IMG/VR virus record: IMGVR_UViG_2547132417_000009
Length of the DNA stretch: 5,726 nt
DNA from: a virus
Taxonomy: Duplodnaviria > Heunggongvirae > Uroviricota > Caudoviricetes
Reading direction: 5' to 3' (one strand)
This document shows positions 1 through 5,726 of the stretch, in pieces. The notes below the pieces were generated by a model that was not told the origin of the DNA, made no database searches, and saw nothing but the letters and a program-made list of their open reading frames with translations. Numbering within the stretch: the first letter of the stretch is position 1; every line of letters starts with the position of its first letter. The translations under genes and the position numbers were made by a program.

Positions 1-289
1 TGGCTGGGTGGAAATCGACAACAACATCGCAGAGAACGCCTTACGGGGAGTGGCCGTAGGCCGGAAAAACTGGATGTTCGCGGGTTCCGACAGCGGTGGT
101 GAACATGCGGCGGTGTTGTACTCGTTGATCGGCACATGCCGTCTGAACAATGTGGAGCCAGAAAAGTGGCTGCGTTACGTCATTGAACATATCCAGGACT
201 GGCCGGCAAACCGGGTACGCGATCTGTTGCCCTGGAAAGTTGATCTGAGCTCTCAGTAAATATCAATACGGTTCTGACGAGTCGCTTAC
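1..289 (+). mobile_element. Right end of an IS66-family insertion sequence (3' end of transposase gene plus terminal inverted repeat)
   Basis: The translated C-terminus (..EIDNNIAENALRGVAVGRKNWMFAGSDSGGEHAAVLYSLIGTCRLNNVEPEKWLRYV..LLPW) is the conserved C-terminal signature of IS66-family TnpC transposases. The element ends ..CGCTTAC at 283-289, the reverse complement of the GTAAGCG terminus typical of IS66-family inverted repeats; the same GTAAGCG appears at 5366 as a left end. The exact boundary is uncertain by a few bp. Confidence 0.75.
2..259 (+). CDS. tnpC: IS66-family transposase TnpC, C-terminal fragment (5' end lies outside the window)
   Basis: The open frame runs from the window edge to TAA at 257-259; the Met at 8 in the ORF track is internal, not the real start. 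The translation carries the conserved IS66 TnpC C-terminal motif (NWMFAGS..GGE.AA..YSLIGTC.LN..EP..WL..V...I.......LLPW). Confidence 0.75.
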   Translation, partial: GWVEIDNNIAENALRGVAVGRKNWMFAGSDSGGEHAAVLYSLIGTCRLNNVEPEKWLRYVIEHIQDWPANRVRDLLPWKVDLSSQ

Positions 290-365
290 TAGTGAGTTGT
301 ATCTATTTATTTTCCAATAAATACAATTGGTTATGTGTTTTTAGGTGGGGCGATCGTGAGGCAAA

Positions 366-394
366 GAAAACCCGGCGCTGAGGCCGGGCTTTTA
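366..394. terminator. Bidirectional intrinsic (Rho-independent) terminator downstream of the 345-aa gene
   Basis: GC-rich stem CCCGGC (371-376) / GCCGGG (383-388) with a 6-nt loop. On the minus strand it is followed by TTTTCTTT and on the plus strand by CTTTTA, with an A-run before it. It lies 17 bp beyond the TAA (411-413) of the minus-strand gene. Confidence 0.7.
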
Positions 395-410
395 GGGCGG
401 GTTGATGCTC

Positions 411-1448
411 TTAACACCCTTTAATGGGAGTTGAGATACGAGATATCATTGCTGATTCAATTATCCCACTTCTGACTTTATAGTCACCAAAAAGAGAAAT
501 TGAATCAGAAAGTTTCATGCTTTCATAAAGAAGGTCTGTTTCGTCTTTATCTATAAAATCAGTAACAACATAAGCAGGGAAGGTATAATCAGTGCCAACC
601 TTTTTGCAAGTTACTGTCAGCTTTCCATCTGATTTTTTAATGCCTTCAATTTCAACTTCTTCTGTAAGTTCTTTGTTGGAAAGTTTCTCACGTGGGTTTC
701 TTATCATTTCGGCAATATCACGCTTATCTAATTCGATCTTTGCCATACCATTAAACTCTACTCTGTCAGCATCTGAGACGCCTTTCAACACCCCAACCAC
801 AGCATTTGAAGTATGGGATTGAATTCCCTCTGAAATCTCCCTCGCAGCTGCTGTGGCAGTATGAGCAGAAAGAACTTCAACCATGCCATCTTTAAGCAGT
901 CTCATTTGCTCAGTTTGGCTGTTGGTGTCGTTGAGGCCTTCATCAATCTCAAGTTGCTTCATTTTTTCTATATGGCGATCTTTTTGTCTCGACTTTATCA
1001 GCCAAGCCCCAGTAAGGATCAGCGATATGAGAACGAGACATATAGCTTTCTCTGTTCCAGTCATACCTTGTGTTGACCTCTCAAATGCAACACCAAATGA
1101 ATCAATTACATCCTTTATAGCAACAAGTAGGTCAGTACAGCCAGGCTCAACTTTAAAAATTATCTCAAGCTCTTTTCTATCACTGTCTTTCAAATGCTTG
1201 AGATTATCCGTTCCTCGCCTTACAAGCATAAACGCTTTATAAAGTTCGGTCTGAAACTCGCACATACCTTGAGCTAAAGAGGACGGTATCGTCCCATTAT
1301 ACCGGTCTGGATCACCATAAATCTTGAAACTTACGTGGTTAACAAAATCAATTTTAATGTCATTGATAGATATTTGCTGACCTTTCTGAACTCTTTCTAA
1401 AAACTCTGAAACGTCGCTTAATGATGAGATATCAATTTGATTGTCCAT
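411..1448 (-). CDS. Hypothetical 345-aa single-pass membrane protein in the rexA/rexB position; candidate prophage exclusion or abortive-infection protein
   Basis: Long minus-strand ORF. I place the start at the ATG at 1446-1448 (MDNQIDISS..), 22 nt downstream of the cI stop; the longer 374-aa ORF would overlap cI by 65 nt. Residues ~134-152 (KAICLVLISLILTGAWLIK, nt ~993-1049) form one hydrophobic helix flanked by charged residues; the N-terminal ~130 aa and C-terminal ~190 aa are hydrophilic, with a charged, possibly coiled-coil stretch after the helix. No nuclease, kinase or NTPase motif recognised. It is AT-rich compared with the flanking lambda genes, ends at a strong terminator, and sits downstream of and on the same strand as cI, as rexAB does in lambda. 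Confidence 0.7.
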   Translation of the reverse strand: MDNQIDISSLSDVSEFLERVQKGQQISINDIKIDFVNHVSFKIYGDPDRYNGTIPSSLAQGMCEFQTELYKAFMLVRRGTDNLKHLKDSDRKELEIIFKVEPGCTDLLVAIKDVIDSFGVAFERSTQGMTGTEKAICLVLISLILTGAWLIKSRQKDRHIEKMKQLEIDEGLNDTNSQTEQMRLLKDGMVEVLSAHTATAAAREISEGIQSHTSNAVVGVLKGVSDADRVEFNGMAKIELDKRDIAEMIRNPREKLSNKELTEEVEIEGIKKSDGKLTVTCKKVGTDYTFPAYVVTDFIDKDETDLLYESMKLSDSISLFGDYKVRSGIIESAMISRISTPIKGC

Positions 1449-1470
1449 ATCTTTTCTCAATGTTATTGTG

Positions 1471-2187
<717 letters not shown>

Positions 2188-2190
2188 TTA

Positions 2191-2260
2191 AATCTATCAC
2201 CGCAAGGGATAAATATCTAACACCGTGCGTGTTGACTGTTTTACCTCTAGCGGTGATAAT
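2191..2260. promoter_or_regulatory. Lambda right operator/promoter region: OR3 (2195-2211), OR2 (2218-2234), OR1 (2242-2258); PRM on the minus strand, PR on the plus strand
   Basis: OR3 TATCACCGCAAGGGATA and OR2 TAACACCGTGCGTGTTG match the canonical lambda operators exactly. OR1 reads TACCTCTAGCGGTGATA, one base different from the canonical TACCTCTGGCGGTGATA. PRM -10 TAGATT (revcomp of 2191-2196) and -35 TAGATA (revcomp of 2214-2219). PR -35 TTGACT (2232-2237) and -10 GATAAT (2255-2260). cro Shine-Dalgarno AGGAGG at 2275-2280. Confidence 0.9.
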
Positions 2261-2275
2261 AATTGCATGTACTAA

Positions 2276-2485
<210 letters not shown>

Positions 2486-2492
2486 ATAACAC

Positions 2493-2524
2493 CGCTCTTA
2501 CACATCACAGCCCTGAAAAAGGGC
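2493..2524 (+). promoter_or_regulatory. nutR antitermination site (boxA 2493-2500, boxB hairpin 2510-2524); the Rho-dependent tR1 region follows, up to cII
   Basis: boxA CGCTCTTA and boxB GCCCTGAAAAAGGGC (5-bp stem, A-rich loop) are the canonical lambda nutR elements, located between cro and cII as in lambda. tR1 is inferred from position only; Rho-dependent terminators have no reliable sequence signature. Confidence 0.85.
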
Positions 2525-2584
2525 ATCCAATTAAACCACACCTATGGTGTATGCATTTATTTTCATACATTCAATCAATTGTTA

Positions 2585-2630
2585 TCTAAGGAAATACTTA
2601 CATATGGTTCGTGCAAACAAACGCAACGAG
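2585..2630 (-). promoter_or_regulatory. PRE (promoter for repressor establishment) with CII-binding TTGC-N6-TTGC repeat
   Basis: On the minus strand, 2613-2626 reads TTGCGTTTGTTTGC (TTGC N6 TTGC), the CII recognition motif flanking the PRE -35 region. It overlaps the 5' end of cII on the opposite strand, as in lambda. Confidence 0.8.
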
Positions 2631-2897
2631 GCACTACGAATCGAGAGTGCGTTGCTTAACAAAATCGCAATGCTTGGAACTGAGAAGACAGCGGAAGCTG
2701 TGGGAGTTGATAAGTCGCAGATCAGCAGGTGGAAGAGGGACTGGATTCCAAAGTTCTCAATGCTGCTTGCTGTTCTTGAATGGGGGGTCGTTGACGACGA
2801 CATGGCTCGATTGGCGCGACAAGTTGCTGCGATTCTCACCAATAAAAAACGCCCGGCGGCAACCGAGCGTTCTGAACAAATCCAGATGGAGTTCTGA
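2604..2897 (+). CDS. cII: CII transcriptional activator (97 aa)
   Basis: The translation from the ATG at 2604 (MVRANKRNEALRIESALLNKIAMLGTEKTAEAVGVDKSQISRWKRDWIPKFSMLLAVLEWGVVDDDMARLARQVAAILTNKKRPAATERSEQIQMEF) matches lambda CII. The upstream in-frame ATG at 2544 in the ORF track is an artefactual extension. Confidence 0.95.
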   Translation: MVRANKRNEALRIESALLNKIAMLGTEKTAEAVGVDKSQISRWKRDWIPKFSMLLAVLEWGVVDDDMARLARQVAAILTNKKRPAATERSEQIQMEF

Positions 2898-2919
2898 GGT
2901 CATTACTGGATCTATCAAC
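2843..2919 (-). ncRNA. oop: oop antisense RNA (about 77 nt) overlapping the 3' end of cII
   Basis: Minus-strand intrinsic terminator: stem CGCUCGG / CCGGGCG with loop UUGCCG (plus coordinates 2850-2869), followed by UUUUUUAUU (2841-2849). Its position relative to cII and O matches lambda oop. The 5' end (~2919) is placed by lambda collinearity, not read from a promoter. Confidence 0.6.
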
Positions 2920-2929
2920 AGGAGTCATT

Positions 2930-3829
2930 ATGACAAATACAGCAAAAATACTCAACTTCGGCAGAGGTAACTTTGCCGGACAGGAGCGTAATGTGGCAGA
3001 TCTCGATGATGGTTACGCCAGACTATCAAATATGCTGCTTGAGGCTTATTCGGGCGCAGATCTGACCAAGCGACAGTTTAAAGTGCTGCTTGCCATTCTG
3101 CGTAAAACCTATGGGTGGAATAAACCAATGGACAGAATCACCGATTCTCAACTTAGCGAGATTACAAAGTTACCCGTCAAACGGTGCAATGAAGCCAAGT
3201 TAGAACTCGTCAGAATGAATATTATCAAGCAGCAAGGCGGCATGTTTGGACCAAATAAAAACATCTCAGAATGGTGCATCCCTCAAAACGAGGGAAAATC
3301 CCCTAAAACGAGGGATAAAACATCCCTCAAATTGGGGGATTGCTATCCCTCAAAACAGGGGGACACAAAAGACACTATTACAAAAGAAAAAAGAAAAGAT
3401 TATTCGTCAGAGAATTCTGGCGAATCCTCTGACCAGCCAGAAAACGACCTTTCTGTGGTGAAACCGGATGCTGCAATTCAGAGCGGCAGCAAGTGGGGGA
3501 CAGCAGAAGACCTGACCGCCGCAGAGTGGATGTTTGACATGGTGAAGACTATCGCACCATCAGCCAGAAAACCGAATTTTGCTGGGTGGGCTAACGATAT
3601 CCGCCTGATGCGTGAACGTGACGGACGTAACCACCGCGACATGTGCGTGCTGTTCCGCTGGGCATGCCAGGACAACTTCTGGTCCGGTAACGTGCTGAGC
3701 CCGGCCAAACTCCGCGATAAGTGGACCCAACTCGAAATCAACCGTAACAAGCAACAGGCAGGCGTGACAGCCAGCAAACCAAAACTCGACCTGACAAACA
3801 CAGACTGGATTTACGGGGTGGATCTATGA
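2930..3829 (+). CDS. O: Replication initiator O protein (299 aa)
   Basis: Translation matches lambda O. RBS AGGAG at 2920-2924. The gene contains the ori-lambda iterons. Its stop overlaps the P start codon (ATGA at 3826-3829). Confidence 0.95.
   Translation: MTNTAKILNFGRGNFAGQERNVADLDDGYARLSNMLLEAYSGADLTKRQFKVLLAILRKTYGWNKPMDRITDSQLSEITKLPVKRCNEAKLELVRMNIIKQQGGMFGPNKNISEWCIPQNEGKSPKTRDKTSLKLGDCYPSKQGDTKDTITKEKRKDYSSENSGESSDQPENDLSVVKPDAAIQSGSKWGTAEDLTAAEWMFDMVKTIAPSARKPNFAGWANDIRLMRERDGRNHRDMCVLFRWACQDNFWSGNVLSPAKLRDKWTQLEINRNKQQAGVTASKPKLDLTNTDWIYGVDL
3278..3405. repeat. ori-lambda: four ~18-20 bp iterons (3278-3363) followed by an AT-rich unwinding region (~3376-3405)
   Basis: Four tandem direct repeats, each an internal dyad of the form ATCCCTCAAAACGAGGGA (TCCCTC..GAGGGA), beginning at 3278, 3298, 3322 and 3345. 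They are followed by TATTACAAAAGAAAAAAGAAAAGATTATTCG. The arrangement inside the O coding sequence is the classic lambda origin. Confidence 0.9.
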
Positions 3830-4527
3830 AAAACATCGCCGCACAGATGGTTAACTTTGACCGTGAGCAGATGCGTCGGATCGCCAACAACATGCCGGAA
3901 CAGTACGACGAAAAGCCGCAGGTACAGCAGGTAGCGCAGATCATCAACGGTGTGTTCAGCCAGTTACTGGCAACTTTCCCGGCGAGCCTGGCTAACCGTG
4001 ACCAGAACGAAGTGAACGAAATCCGTCGCCAGTGGGTTCTGGCTTTTCGGGAAAACGGGATCACCACGATGGAACAGGTTAACGCAGGAATGCGCGTAGC
4101 CCGTCGGCAGAATCGACCATTTCTGCCATCACCCGGGCAGTTTGTTGCATGGTGCCGGGAAGAAGCATCCGTTACCGCCGGACTGCCAAACGTCAGCGAG
4201 CTGGTTGATATGGTTTACGAGTATTGCCGGAAGCGAGGCCTGTATCCGGATGCGGAGTCTTATCCGTGGAAATCAAACGCGCACTACTGGCTGGTTACCA
4301 ACCTGTATCAGAACATGCGGGCCAATGCGCTTACTGATGCGGAATTACGCCGTAAGGCCGCAGATGAGCTTGTCCATATGACTGCGAGAATTAACCGTGG
4401 TGAGGCGATCCCTGAACCAGTAAAACAACTTCCTGTCATGGGCGGTAGACCTCTAAATCGTGCACAGGCTCTGGCGAAGATCGCAGAAATCAAAGCTAAG
4501 TTCGGACTGAAAGGAGCAAGTGTATGA
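3826..4527 (+). CDS. P: Replication protein P (DnaB helicase loader, 233 aa)
   Basis: Translation matches lambda P. The start is translationally coupled to O (ATGA overlap) and the stop overlaps the ren start (ATGA at 4524-4527). Confidence 0.95.
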   Translation: MKNIAAQMVNFDREQMRRIANNMPEQYDEKPQVQQVAQIINGVFSQLLATFPASLANRDQNEVNEIRRQWVLAFRENGITTMEQVNAGMRVARRQNRPFLPSPGQFVAWCREEASVTAGLPNVSELVDMVYEYCRKRGLYPDAESYPWKSNAHYWLVTNLYQNMRANALTDAELRRKAADELVHMTARINRGEAIPEPVKQLPVMGGRPLNRAQALAKIAEIKAKFGLKGASV

Positions 4528-4814
4528 CGGGCAAAGAGGCAATTATTCATTACCTGGGGACGCATAATAGCTTCTGTGCGCCGGACGTTGCCGCGCTAAC
4601 AGGCGCAACAGTAACCAGCATAAATCAGGCCGCGGCTAAAATGGCACGGGCAGGTCTTCTGGTTATCGAAGGTAAGGTCTGGCGAACGGTGTATTACCGG
4701 TTTGCTACCAAGGAAGAACGGGAAGGAAAGATGAGCACGAACCTGATTTTTAAGGAGTGTCGCCAGAGTGCCGCGATGAAACGGGTATTGGCAGTATATG
4801 GAGTTAAAAGATGA
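4524..4814 (+). CDS. ren: Ren protein (96 aa)
   Basis: Translation matches lambda Ren; position immediately after P. Confidence 0.9.
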   Translation: MTGKEAIIHYLGTHNSFCAPDVAALTGATVTSINQAAAKMARAGLLVIEGKVWRTVYYRFATKEEREGKMSTNLIFKECRQSAAMKRVLAVYGVKR

Positions 4815-4839
4815 CCATCTACATCACTGAGCTAATAAC

Positions 4840-4871
4840 AGGCCTGCTGGTAATCGCAGGCCTTTTTATTT
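4840..4871 (+). terminator. tR2-type intrinsic terminator between ren and ninB
   Basis: Perfect 8-bp stem AGGCCTGC (4840-4847) / GCAGGCCT (4856-4863) with an 8-nt loop, followed by TTTTATTT. This is the position of lambda tR2. Confidence 0.8.
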
Positions 4872-4887
4872 GGGGGAGAGGGAAGTC

Positions 4888-5328
4888 ATGAAAAAACTAA
4901 CCTTTGAAATTCGATCTCCAGCACATCAGCAAAACGCTATTCACGCGGTACAGCAAATTCTTCCAGACCCAACCAAACCAATCGTAGTAACCATTCAGGA
5001 ACGCAACCGCAGCTTAGACCAGAACCGAAAGCTTTGGGCTTGCCTTGGTGACGTCTCTCGTCAGGTTGAATGGCATGGTCGCTGGCTGGATGCAGAAAGC
5101 TGGAAGTGTGTGTTTACCGCAGCATTAAAGAAGCAGGATGTTGTTCCTAACCTTGCCGGGAATGGCTTTGTGGTAATAGGCCAGTCAACCAGCAGGATGC
5201 GTGTAAACGAATTTGCGGAGCTATTAGAGCTTATACAGGCATTCGGTACAGAGCGTGGCGTTAAGTGGTCAGACGAAGCGCGACTGGCTCTCGAATGGAA
5301 AGCGCGATGGGGAGATCGGGCTGCATGA
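4888..5328 (+). CDS. ninB: NinB (Orf-family recombination mediator, 146 aa)
   Basis: Translation from the ATG at 4888 (MKKLTFEIRSPAHQQNAIHAVQQILPDPTKPIVVTIQERNRSLDQNRKLWACLGD..) matches lambda NinB. A purine-rich RBS (GGGAGAGGGAAG) lies upstream. The ORF-track start at 4870 is a TTG extension. Confidence 0.9.
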   Translation: MKKLTFEIRSPAHQQNAIHAVQQILPDPTKPIVVTIQERNRSLDQNRKLWACLGDVSRQVEWHGRWLDAESWKCVFTAALKKQDVVPNLAGNGFVVIGQSTSRMRVNEFAELLELIQAFGTERGVKWSDEARLALEWKARWGDRAA

Positions 5329-5369
5329 CTATCAAATCAAATACGCCAGCACACGACAAGGACTGGTAA
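5325..5369 (+). pseudogene. 5' remnant (14 codons) of the nin gene following ninB (ninC position), cut by the IS66-family insertion
   Basis: The ATG at 5325 overlaps the ninB stop (ATGA), the usual coupling in the lambda nin region. The frame reads MTIKSNTPAHDKDW and then hits TAA at 5367-5369, which lies inside the IS terminus GTAAGCG (5366-5372). Confidence 0.6.
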
Positions 5370-5726
5370 GCGTAAAGCCAATGCCGTCTGTAACACCTGC
5401 TCCTTGCAGACTAAATTAGAGCTCCTTCTAAATTAGACGGAGTTCTATTGATGGATAAACCTACAGACTGGCGCTCCGGAACCCGCCGGATATTTTCTAA
5501 TGAATTTAAACTTCATATGGTTGAACTGGCTTCGAAACCAAATGCCAATGTTGCACAACTGGCCCGGGAACATGGCGTTGATAACAACCTGATTTTTAAA
5601 TGGCTACGCCTCTGGCAAAGAGAAGGACGTATTTCTCGTAGAATGCCTCCAACTATTGTAGGCCCTACAGTATCACAATCTTTTCCGGCCTCTCCGACTC
5701 TGGTTCCAGTGGAACTTATCGACACC
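5366..5726 (+). mobile_element. Left end of an IS66-family insertion sequence (terminal inverted repeat plus start of tnpA), continuing beyond the window
   Basis: It begins GTAAGCGTAAAGCCAATGCCGTCTGTAACACC. This shares GTAAGCG and scattered downstream positions with the reverse complement of the right end at 261-289 (GTAAGCGACTCGTCAGAACCGTATTGATAT), the imperfect inverted-repeat pattern typical of the IS66 family. It is followed by a tnpA-like ORF. Confidence 0.7.
5451..5726 (+). CDS. tnpA: IS66-family accessory protein TnpA (orfA), N-terminal part; 3' end outside the window
   Basis: The ATG at 5451 has GGAG about 8 nt upstream. The frame stays open to the window end (92 codons: MDKPTDWRSGTRRIFSNEFKLHMVELASKPNANVAQLAREHGVDNNLIFKWLRLWQREG..), which explains its absence from the stop-bounded ORF track. 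It has an HTH-like N-terminus and sits first after the left inverted repeat, as expected for IS66 orfA. Confidence 0.65.
   Translation, partial: MDKPTDWRSGTRRIFSNEFKLHMVELASKPNANVAQLAREHGVDNNLIFKWLRLWQREGRISRRMPPTIVGPTVSQSFPASPTLVPVELIDT

Follow-up and report, generated by a model that had tools for sequence, protein, structure and literature searches.

What has taken the place of rexA and rexB behind the cI repressor gene of a lambdoid phage fragment, and can base composition tell how it came there? The question is raised by a stretch of Caudoviricetes DNA of 5,726 nucleotides (IMG/VR record IMGVR_UViG_2547132417_000009), which is called the window here. In the window cI is followed on the same strand by a single open reading frame (ORF) for a protein of 345 amino acids (aa), the cargo gene. 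The original prediction took this gene for horizontally acquired cargo and not for a diverged rex homologue, because it appeared much more AT-rich than the lambda-like DNA around it. Our analysis supports a swapped-in cargo, by the breaks in homology and the lack of any similarity to the Rex proteins, and not by composition. The best explanation as a whole is a cassette in a fixed slot with a cargo that would be expressed in lysogens and serve against other phages. We give this explanation a probability of about 0.6.

Boundaries of the cassette

A comparison of the window with lambda (blastn) shows that only two segments match, 290–388 (lambda 35730–35824, 95% identity) and 1475–5328 (lambda 37231–41084). 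The lambda homology is lost at 388|389 and regained at 1474|1475. The segment between, 389–1474 on the minus strand, is a cassette of 1,086 bp with 38.5% G+C. It stands in for lambda 35825–37230, the 1,406 bp that hold rexB, rexA and the 112-nt spacer between rexA and cI. Both junctions are located to the base by this alignment, which had been proposed as a check. The insert had been taken to begin at 290, but this position is the junction between an insertion sequence (IS) of the IS66 family and lambda-like DNA, and the cassette starts at 389. The lambda-like spacer between oL and the terminator t_imm (290–362, minus strand), which starts at lambda 35730, lies outside the swapped cassette.

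On the cI side, in the direction of transcription, the window reads ...GAGACGTTTGG|T TAA and lambda reads ...GAGACGTTTGG|C TGA. The homology reaches as far as the second base of the final glycine codon of cI (GGT TAA here, GGC TGA in lambda). Since it stops before the third base of this codon, the cI stop codon comes with the cargo. On the far side, lambda-like sequence begins again with the first base of the t_imm hairpin CCCGGCCTCAGCGCCGGGUUUUCUUU, which in lambda directly follows the rexB stop codon. This intrinsic terminator of the cI operon (363–388, minus strand) consists of the hairpin CCCGGCCTCAGCGCCGGG followed by UUUUCUUU, and its first base is the distal (left) boundary of the cassette. 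Its RNA fold has an energy of −20.4 kcal/mol (z = −2.65), and it is annotated as 'Timm' in the record EF120456.1 of phage mEp332. Our terminator scan missed t_imm, for which folding and homology provide the confirmation.

These break points recur, to the base, in four phages with four other cargoes. The slot is occupied by rexBA in lambda, by a NYN-domain gene in ev099, by an annotated hypothetical gene in 2G7b, and by a DUF1828 gene together with a hypothetical gene in ev017. The sequences ...GAGACGTTTGG| and |CCCGGCC...GCCGGGTTTTCTTTGCC at the junctions are identical in the window and in these four phages, and the motifs that flank the slot can be written as ...GAGACGTTTGG on the cI side and CCCGGCC[N5-6]GCCGGGTTTT on the t_imm side. 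The stretch 290–388 is 92–98% identical in ev099, 2G7b and ev017 despite the different cargoes. In PhiR12_2 an unrelated cI is followed by a 42%-identical homologue of the cargo and then by the same t_imm. In the window, the conserved 3′ end of cI lies on one side, t_imm with the oL-proximal spacer lies on the other, and the sequence between them is unrelated. We conclude that 389–1474 is almost certainly a cargo cassette in a fixed lambdoid slot, which reaches from the last codon of cI to the first base of t_imm.

Such cassettes pass from phage to phage, and their boundaries are exact to the base. Most likely they would be exchanged by homologous recombination in the conserved flanks, with the C-terminal domain of cI at one end and the stretch from t_imm to oL at the other. 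Apart from these flanks, we saw no microhomology at the junctions. PMC8585504, which cites Degnan et al. 2007, calls the interval between cI and N a hotspot of mosaic diversity and counts the abortive-infection genes rexAB and bstA among its occupants.

The t_imm hairpin is not the same in all these phages. In ev099 (570–600) and PhiR12_2 (4537–4560) it reads CCCGGCCACCGAGCCGGG and not CCCGGCCTCAGCGCCGGG, with the stem kept and the loop changed. Across cargo types there are thus two alleles of the terminator.

Could the cargo gene still be a highly diverged homologue or fusion of rexA and rexB, which has drifted in both sequence and composition? Its position, strand and operon are those of rexAB, it encodes a membrane-type helix as RexB does, and its G+C content is near that of rexAB (38.5 versus 40.9%). 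Against this, the comparison of the protein family with the Rex proteins by hhalign gives a probability of 0.2% for RexA and of 0.1% for RexB. The architecture also differs, with one 345-aa ORF and one hydrophobic helix here versus separate genes for a soluble RexA and a polytopic RexB. RexA is not among the top PDB fold matches listed for the cargo protein. We therefore rejected a diverged rex, which we consider hardly credible, and treat the gene as a replacement of rexAB.

Base composition of the cassette

The AT-richness had been derived from two hand-counted 100-bp samples, 1081–1180 in the cargo gene and 4141–4240 in gene P. Both counts are exact (0.34 and 0.56 G+C). The contrast of 22 points is nevertheless too large, because the samples represent a low spot of the cargo and the most GC-rich gene of the window (P, 53.4% G+C), that is, the extremes of the window. 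The cassette as a whole, at 38.5%, is significantly more AT-rich than cI (45.4%; Fisher p=0.003) and than the lambda-homologous backbone 1475–5328 (48.3%; Fisher p=8e-9). The AT-richness thus stands at about 7 points relative to cI and about 10 relative to the backbone. The G+C content at third codon positions (GC3) follows the same direction, with 0.324 in the cargo gene versus 0.441 in cI (p=0.004) and 0.504 in the pooled backbone (p=3e-9). In synonymous-codon distance to the backbone pool, as assessed by resampling, the cargo gene is the furthest (z=6.0). The values for cI (2.9), O (4.4) and P (3.2) deviate from the pooled usage too, and therefore the backbone itself is heterogeneous. Both quantities that had been proposed for a check, G+C content and codon usage, differ significantly between the cargo and its neighbours.

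The sharp switch that had been placed within a few bases of the cI stop codon is only partly borne out. The best two-segment change-point within 389–2184 lies at 1475–1480, which is at the homology junction, and the G+C content of the 200 bp on each side of 1474|1475 is 33% versus 50%. However, the likelihood at this change-point is reached in 49 of 500 shuffles, and the switch is weakly supported in this respect. The strongest G+C step of the phage DNA lies inside gene O, near 3417, and exceeds the step at the cargo junction. The OR region (39.0%), cro (42.8%) and the nutR spacer (34.7%) are as AT-rich as the cargo; cII has 50.7% and O has 48.3%. When 1–1474 is considered, the change-point is found at about 236, because the insertion sequence at 1–289 has 54% G+C. 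Within gene O, the 5′ half is AT-rich and the 3′ half is GC-rich.

The step at the cassette has to be weighed against an ordinary local fluctuation in a mosaic and generally AT-rich immunity region. The result of the shuffles, the equally AT-rich OR, cro and nutR segments, the larger step inside O and the departure of every backbone gene from the pooled codon usage would all fit such a fluctuation. The whole-segment tests given above for cI, the backbone and GC3 are significant, though, the best change-point falls within 5 bp of a homology junction that was defined independently, and a low G+C content is common to all cargoes measured in the slot. A mere fluctuation is accordingly improbable, if somewhat less so than a diverged rex.

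The low G+C content does not separate the present cargo from rexAB. For the six cargoes measured in the slot the values are 38.5, 40.9, 41.0, 34.8, 39.5 and 40.1%. The lambda rexBA segment, with 40.9%, is well below the lambda backbone (p=1e-6) and is indistinguishable from the cassette (p=0.23). At 8 of 10 loci from Yersinia, Morganella, Pantoea and other hosts, the homologue of the cargo gene has a G+C content 4–12 points under that of its 10–12 kb flanks. Composition alone cannot separate foreign cargo from rex, and the low G+C would show with rex in place too. The AT-richness belongs to the slot and its accessory gene pool and is not specific to the present replacement. The low G+C of the cassette reflects an AT-rich pool of accessory genes that supplies the slot. 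By itself the compositional observation adds little. Low G+C marks the whole slot including rexAB, and it is not usable to tell a new cargo from an old one.

The cargo gene and its expression

The cargo gene spans 411–1448 on the minus strand, with its ATG at 1448 and its TAA at 411–413. The start at 1448 is fixed by the aligned N-termini of the homologues, and a longer ORF running into cI was rejected as an artefact of the ORF caller. The cargo ATG is separated from the cI stop codon by a spacer of 22 nt (1449–1470, minus strand), compared with 112 nt between cI and rexA in lambda. The terminator scan, the same that missed t_imm, gives no minus-strand site between cI and the cargo gene. The two genes lie on the same strand, and with the 22-nt spacing and no predicted terminator between them, co-transcription follows as the natural reading; the cargo gene is probably co-expressed with cI. 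The promoter scan yields no more sites than are found in shuffles, and we claim no internal promoter. The cargo would then share the repressor's transcripts from pRM (and pRE), and lysogens would produce it all the time. According to PMC12315714, genes immediately to the left of cI are believed to be carried on the cI transcript. By transfer of coordinates from the annotation of EF120456.1 (offset −1347), pRM and oR3-oR2-oR1 would lie at 2191–2258, and the pRM/OR region is 96% identical to that of lambda. The cI gene itself (1471–2184, minus strand) was identified from the ORF list and by alignment to lambda, and it is of lambda immunity.

Family and predicted structure of the cargo protein

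The cargo protein matches PHROG 6191, a family with no function assigned, over its full length (E=6.3e-116, residues 1–344 on positions 4–337 of the 338 in the profile). Searches of Pfam (E≤1), NCBIfam and PADLOC give no match for it. While a word-indexed search returns 11 clusters of homologues, all from Enterobacterales, an exhaustive profile search returns 810 representatives (50% identity, E≤1e-3), which are mostly of 310–360 aa and match at full length. Among 140 relatives, PADLOC-DB 2.0 gives scattered matches only, with at most two members per model and E≥1e-4.

The AlphaFold2 (AF2) model computed from the 140-sequence alignment has a pLDDT of 90.7 and a pTM of 0.85; a run with 11 sequences (pLDDT 60) was not used. 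In this model, an N-terminal alpha/beta domain (residues 1–125) is followed by helices at residues 131–165, by two long helices at residues 171–223, and by a beta-rich C-terminal domain at residues ~229–339. The C-terminal domain is predicted, from the model and its fold matches, to be an oligonucleotide/oligosaccharide-binding (OB) fold, a five-stranded beta-barrel that can be superposed on known OB folds. A fold search of BFVD gives only two matches, both to uncharacterised phage proteins. The hydrophobic segment at residues 135–151 (AICLVLISLILTGAWLI) has a mean Kyte–Doolittle (KD) value of 2.09. One hydrophobic 19-mer above KD 1.6 is present in the protein, and the aligned segment exceeds KD 1.5 in 91% of the relatives. 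Sequence-profile matches in the PDB to N-terminal regions of MotB, Tom20 and PBP5 (E 0.016–0.4) were read as compositional, as they cover only the hydrophobic helix and the helical stretch that follows it. Conserved residues are few and structural (G45, Q66, L86, G103 and M129), and none of them suggests catalysis.

Genomic neighbourhood of the family

In Yersinia, Morganella and E. coli PhiR12 phages, and also for a 29%-identical member, the gene is located directly downstream of a repressor with HTH_3 and Peptidase_S24 domains. The 29%-identical member starts 34 nt after its repressor, and in Morganella a DUF3024 gene is located between the repressor and the cargo homologue. The repressor-linked homologues occur with differing cI types and replication modules. 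Other members are found near a TIR_2 gene, a Cap4 nuclease, ParE/Phd or AbiEi_2, and still others are solitary chromosomal genes. A search for related loci with close alignment led to one Pantoea locus.

In the Yersinia (7074–7283, minus strand) and Morganella (7050–7247, minus strand) prophages, an ORF of 65–69 aa on the opposite strand lies directly downstream of the homologue, between the homologue and N. No Pfam match is on record for this ORF. In Yersinia GCA_020531725.1 (6001–7023) an identical copy of the Yersinia homologue adjoins two DinI genes and a gene for the tail-tip protein gpJ, and not a repressor. This site is a second accessory-gene location for the same cargo.

Proposed function of the cargo protein

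We propose that the cargo protein would protect the lysogen from other phages, as a single-polypeptide superinfection-exclusion or abortive-infection factor. By analogy with the known occupants of the slot, we see close to an even chance, or slightly less, for this assignment. Speculatively, a membrane-anchored protein would recognise a phage-derived ligand by its OB domain and then block entry or disturb the membrane. It would be a functional analogue, and not a homologue, of the pair formed by the RexA sensor and the membrane protein RexB. More tentatively still, it may found an undescribed class of single-gene, prophage-borne anti-phage proteins, in which an OB-fold sensor blocks infection or collapses the membrane. 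If this is true, one polypeptide does what RexA and RexB do together, in a family of at least 810 cluster representatives that is absent from Pfam, NCBIfam and PADLOC.

Two other functions have been weighed against the anti-phage role. The cargo could be a lysogen-expressed accessory ('moron') gene with a non-defence role, such as envelope conversion, host fitness or virulence, or tuning of the lysis–lysogeny switch. Tuning of this switch has been reported for RexAB. The cargo protein shows no similarity to known defence proteins, some family members stand alone among housekeeping genes (LptFG, DegQ/DegS-type proteases), and OB domains of periplasmic proteins and toxin B subunits (SilF, YgiW, pertussis-toxin S4/S5) are also among the matches of its OB fold. 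We still regard a non-defence role, the main rival, as less likely. Abortive-infection genes (rexAB, bstA) are the best-known occupants of the slot, several family members lie near toxin–antitoxin, Abi, TIR or Cap4 genes, and linkage to unrelated repressors would be natural for genes that have to be active in lysogens to protect them. A component of type II secretion is a far less plausible identity. It is suggested by the label 'T2SS GspM containing protein' in the 2025 GenBank records of mEp332 and PhiR12, and GspM is a single-pass inner-membrane protein. There is no T2SSM match for the cargo protein, which is without any Pfam family at E≤1, and none among its 140 relatives (0/140). GspM is also not among the fold matches listed, and no genes of a type II secretion system (T2SS) lie nearby in the loci examined. 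We rejected the label for the lack of a Pfam match in the cargo protein and the 140 relatives, and a GspM-like component is extremely improbable.

Several observations weigh against the anti-phage role and the setting that we propose for it. PADLOC 2.0, Pfam and NCBIfam give no match for the cargo protein and no consistent one among the 140 relatives. The ligands of OB folds include nucleic acids, sugars, metals and proteins, so the fold does not point to one of them. The hydrophobic helix may not be a conventional membrane anchor. The counts of lysine and arginine that flank it are balanced across the family (2.3 versus 2.5), with no consistent topology, and in the cargo protein the C-terminal flank of the helix is the more basic one, which would leave an N-terminal domain of 130 aa on the outer side of the membrane with no signal peptide to export it. 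Co-transcription with cI is drawn from the spacing and from lambda. The association with repressors and defence genes is drawn from about a dozen sampled loci. The exact protein is present on ~620 E. coli contigs and is always annotated as hypothetical protein. Finally, an IS66 element lies 73 bp beyond t_imm in this window, and the fragment may be a dead prophage remnant, in which the cargo gene need not be under selection.

Relation to mEp332 and to known exclusion systems

Positions 290–5365 of the window are 99.5% identical to mEp332 (EF120456.1, gene mEp33204; genome PV340541.1), with no mismatch up to 1660. The cargo is identical, the protein is 100% identical, and t_imm, cargo, cI, pRM/OR, cro and cII follow in the same order. 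EF120456.1 is the immunity region of mEp332, a phage isolated in Mexico, and Timm, mEp33204, cI, pRM and the operators are already marked in it. The immunity of mEp332 is shared with lambda (PMC3442831). The cargo gene is labelled 'conserved hypothetical protein' in EF120456.1 and 'T2SS GspM containing protein' in PV340541.1, the latter unsupported here. In difference to mEp332, the fragment in the window is cut on both sides by IS66-family elements, and the pL/N side and the part beyond ninB are missing from the window. The same positions are 99.8% identical to a prophage of E. coli PCP06101. The cargo gene together with cI is found in at least 18 complete E. coli genomes, 11 of which match 290–1600 and at least 7 more of which match 363–1600. 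The replacement of rexAB is already on public record in mEp332, and the interval between cI and N is a recognised mosaic hotspot; the finding in its original form is already known. In the literature we found no functional study of the mEp332 cargo gene or of related entries.

A disagreement with the mEp332 genome record is seen in cII. Around 6255–6680, PV340541.1 and the window disagree by a 1-nt indel, which lies near 2787 of the window, and the record annotates a 426-nt cII that overlaps O. This long cII may be a sequencing or annotation artefact.

With lambda rexA-rexB, the cargo gene shares the slot, the boundaries, the strand, presumably the same pRM/pRE transcript, the low G+C content and a membrane-type component. 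It differs in that there is no sequence or fold similarity, that one gene stands here for two, and that the spacer after cI is 22 nt and not 112 nt. A second counterpart is BstA of the Salmonella prophage BTP1. As described in PMC8585504, bstA is a single gene directly after the repressor, is expressed in the lysogen and has its own terminator, and its position is kept across prophages with different repressors, as is that of the cargo family. The cargo family differs from BstA in being without any Pfam domain match, and it is not known to have a self-immunity element.

Superinfection-exclusion proteins form a third group for comparison. P22 SieA, lambda SieB, HK97 gp15 and lactococcal Sie2009 are prophage-encoded and lysogen-expressed, have a membrane-spanning helix, and are encoded near immunity genes. 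No sequence match to these proteins is found in Pfam, PHROGs or PADLOC. The cargo protein exceeds them in size, and its helix is flanked on either side by soluble domains, among them the predicted OB fold.

The slot boundaries are base-exact and common to at least five unrelated cargoes, which makes the slot easy to mine for lysogen-expressed accessory genes. The cargo family is large, uncharacterised and found repeatedly behind prophage repressors, and it is a reasonable and cheap candidate for a phage-defence screen.

Layout of the fragment and the flanking IS66-family elements

According to the ORF list and database matches, the phage DNA is confined to 290–5365 of the window and corresponds to the lambdoid immunity and replication region. 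On the plus strand it carries cro (2285–2485), cII (2604–2897), O (2930–3829), P (3826–4527), ren (4524–4814) and ninB (4888–5328). An Rfam search of the window gives no match. Two IS66-family ends in the same orientation bracket this 5,076-bp fragment with cargo, cI, cro, cII, O, P, ren and ninB.

The left element (1–289, plus strand) is the 3′ end of an ISCro1-like member of the family, with the C-terminus of the transposase and the right inverted repeat. The transposase ORF (8–259) matches Pfam PF03050 and PF13817 (DDE_Tnp_IS66 transposase domains), and the right terminal inverted repeat ends ...GTCGCTTAC at 289 (...CGCTTAC). By megablast, 1–289 matches copies of 'IS66-like element ISCro1 family transposase'. 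The end at 289 was set by alignment with another copy of the IS, with lambda and with mEp332. An IS66 similarity reaching 301–324 was rejected, since direct alignment shows it to be a chance similarity. The right element (5366–5726, plus strand) is the left end of a second, ISEc43-like member. Its inverted repeat GTAAGCGTAAAGCC... opens with GTAAGCG at 5366, and the first small ORF begins at 5451. The flanking elements are assigned to the IS66 family by the transposase domains of the left one and by terminal repeats of the GTAAGCG type in both. The junctions between IS and lambdoid DNA were not found in the phage, plasmid and complete E. coli genome collections. The bracketed fragment may be what is left of a prophage, or a segment bounded by IS elements that retains immunity, cargo and replication origin.

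The right element cuts a gene for an N6-adenine methyltransferase ~40 bp past its start (5325–5365), a gene that follows ninB in mEp332. The left junction 289|290 (lambda 35729|35730) places the IS in the interval from oL3 to t_imm, at ~85 bp from oL3 by mEp332 coordinates. If pL and N persist beyond the left IS, the IS would add its own length to the oL–oR distance that CI looping spans, and if they are absent, the fragment would have lost the leftward operon.

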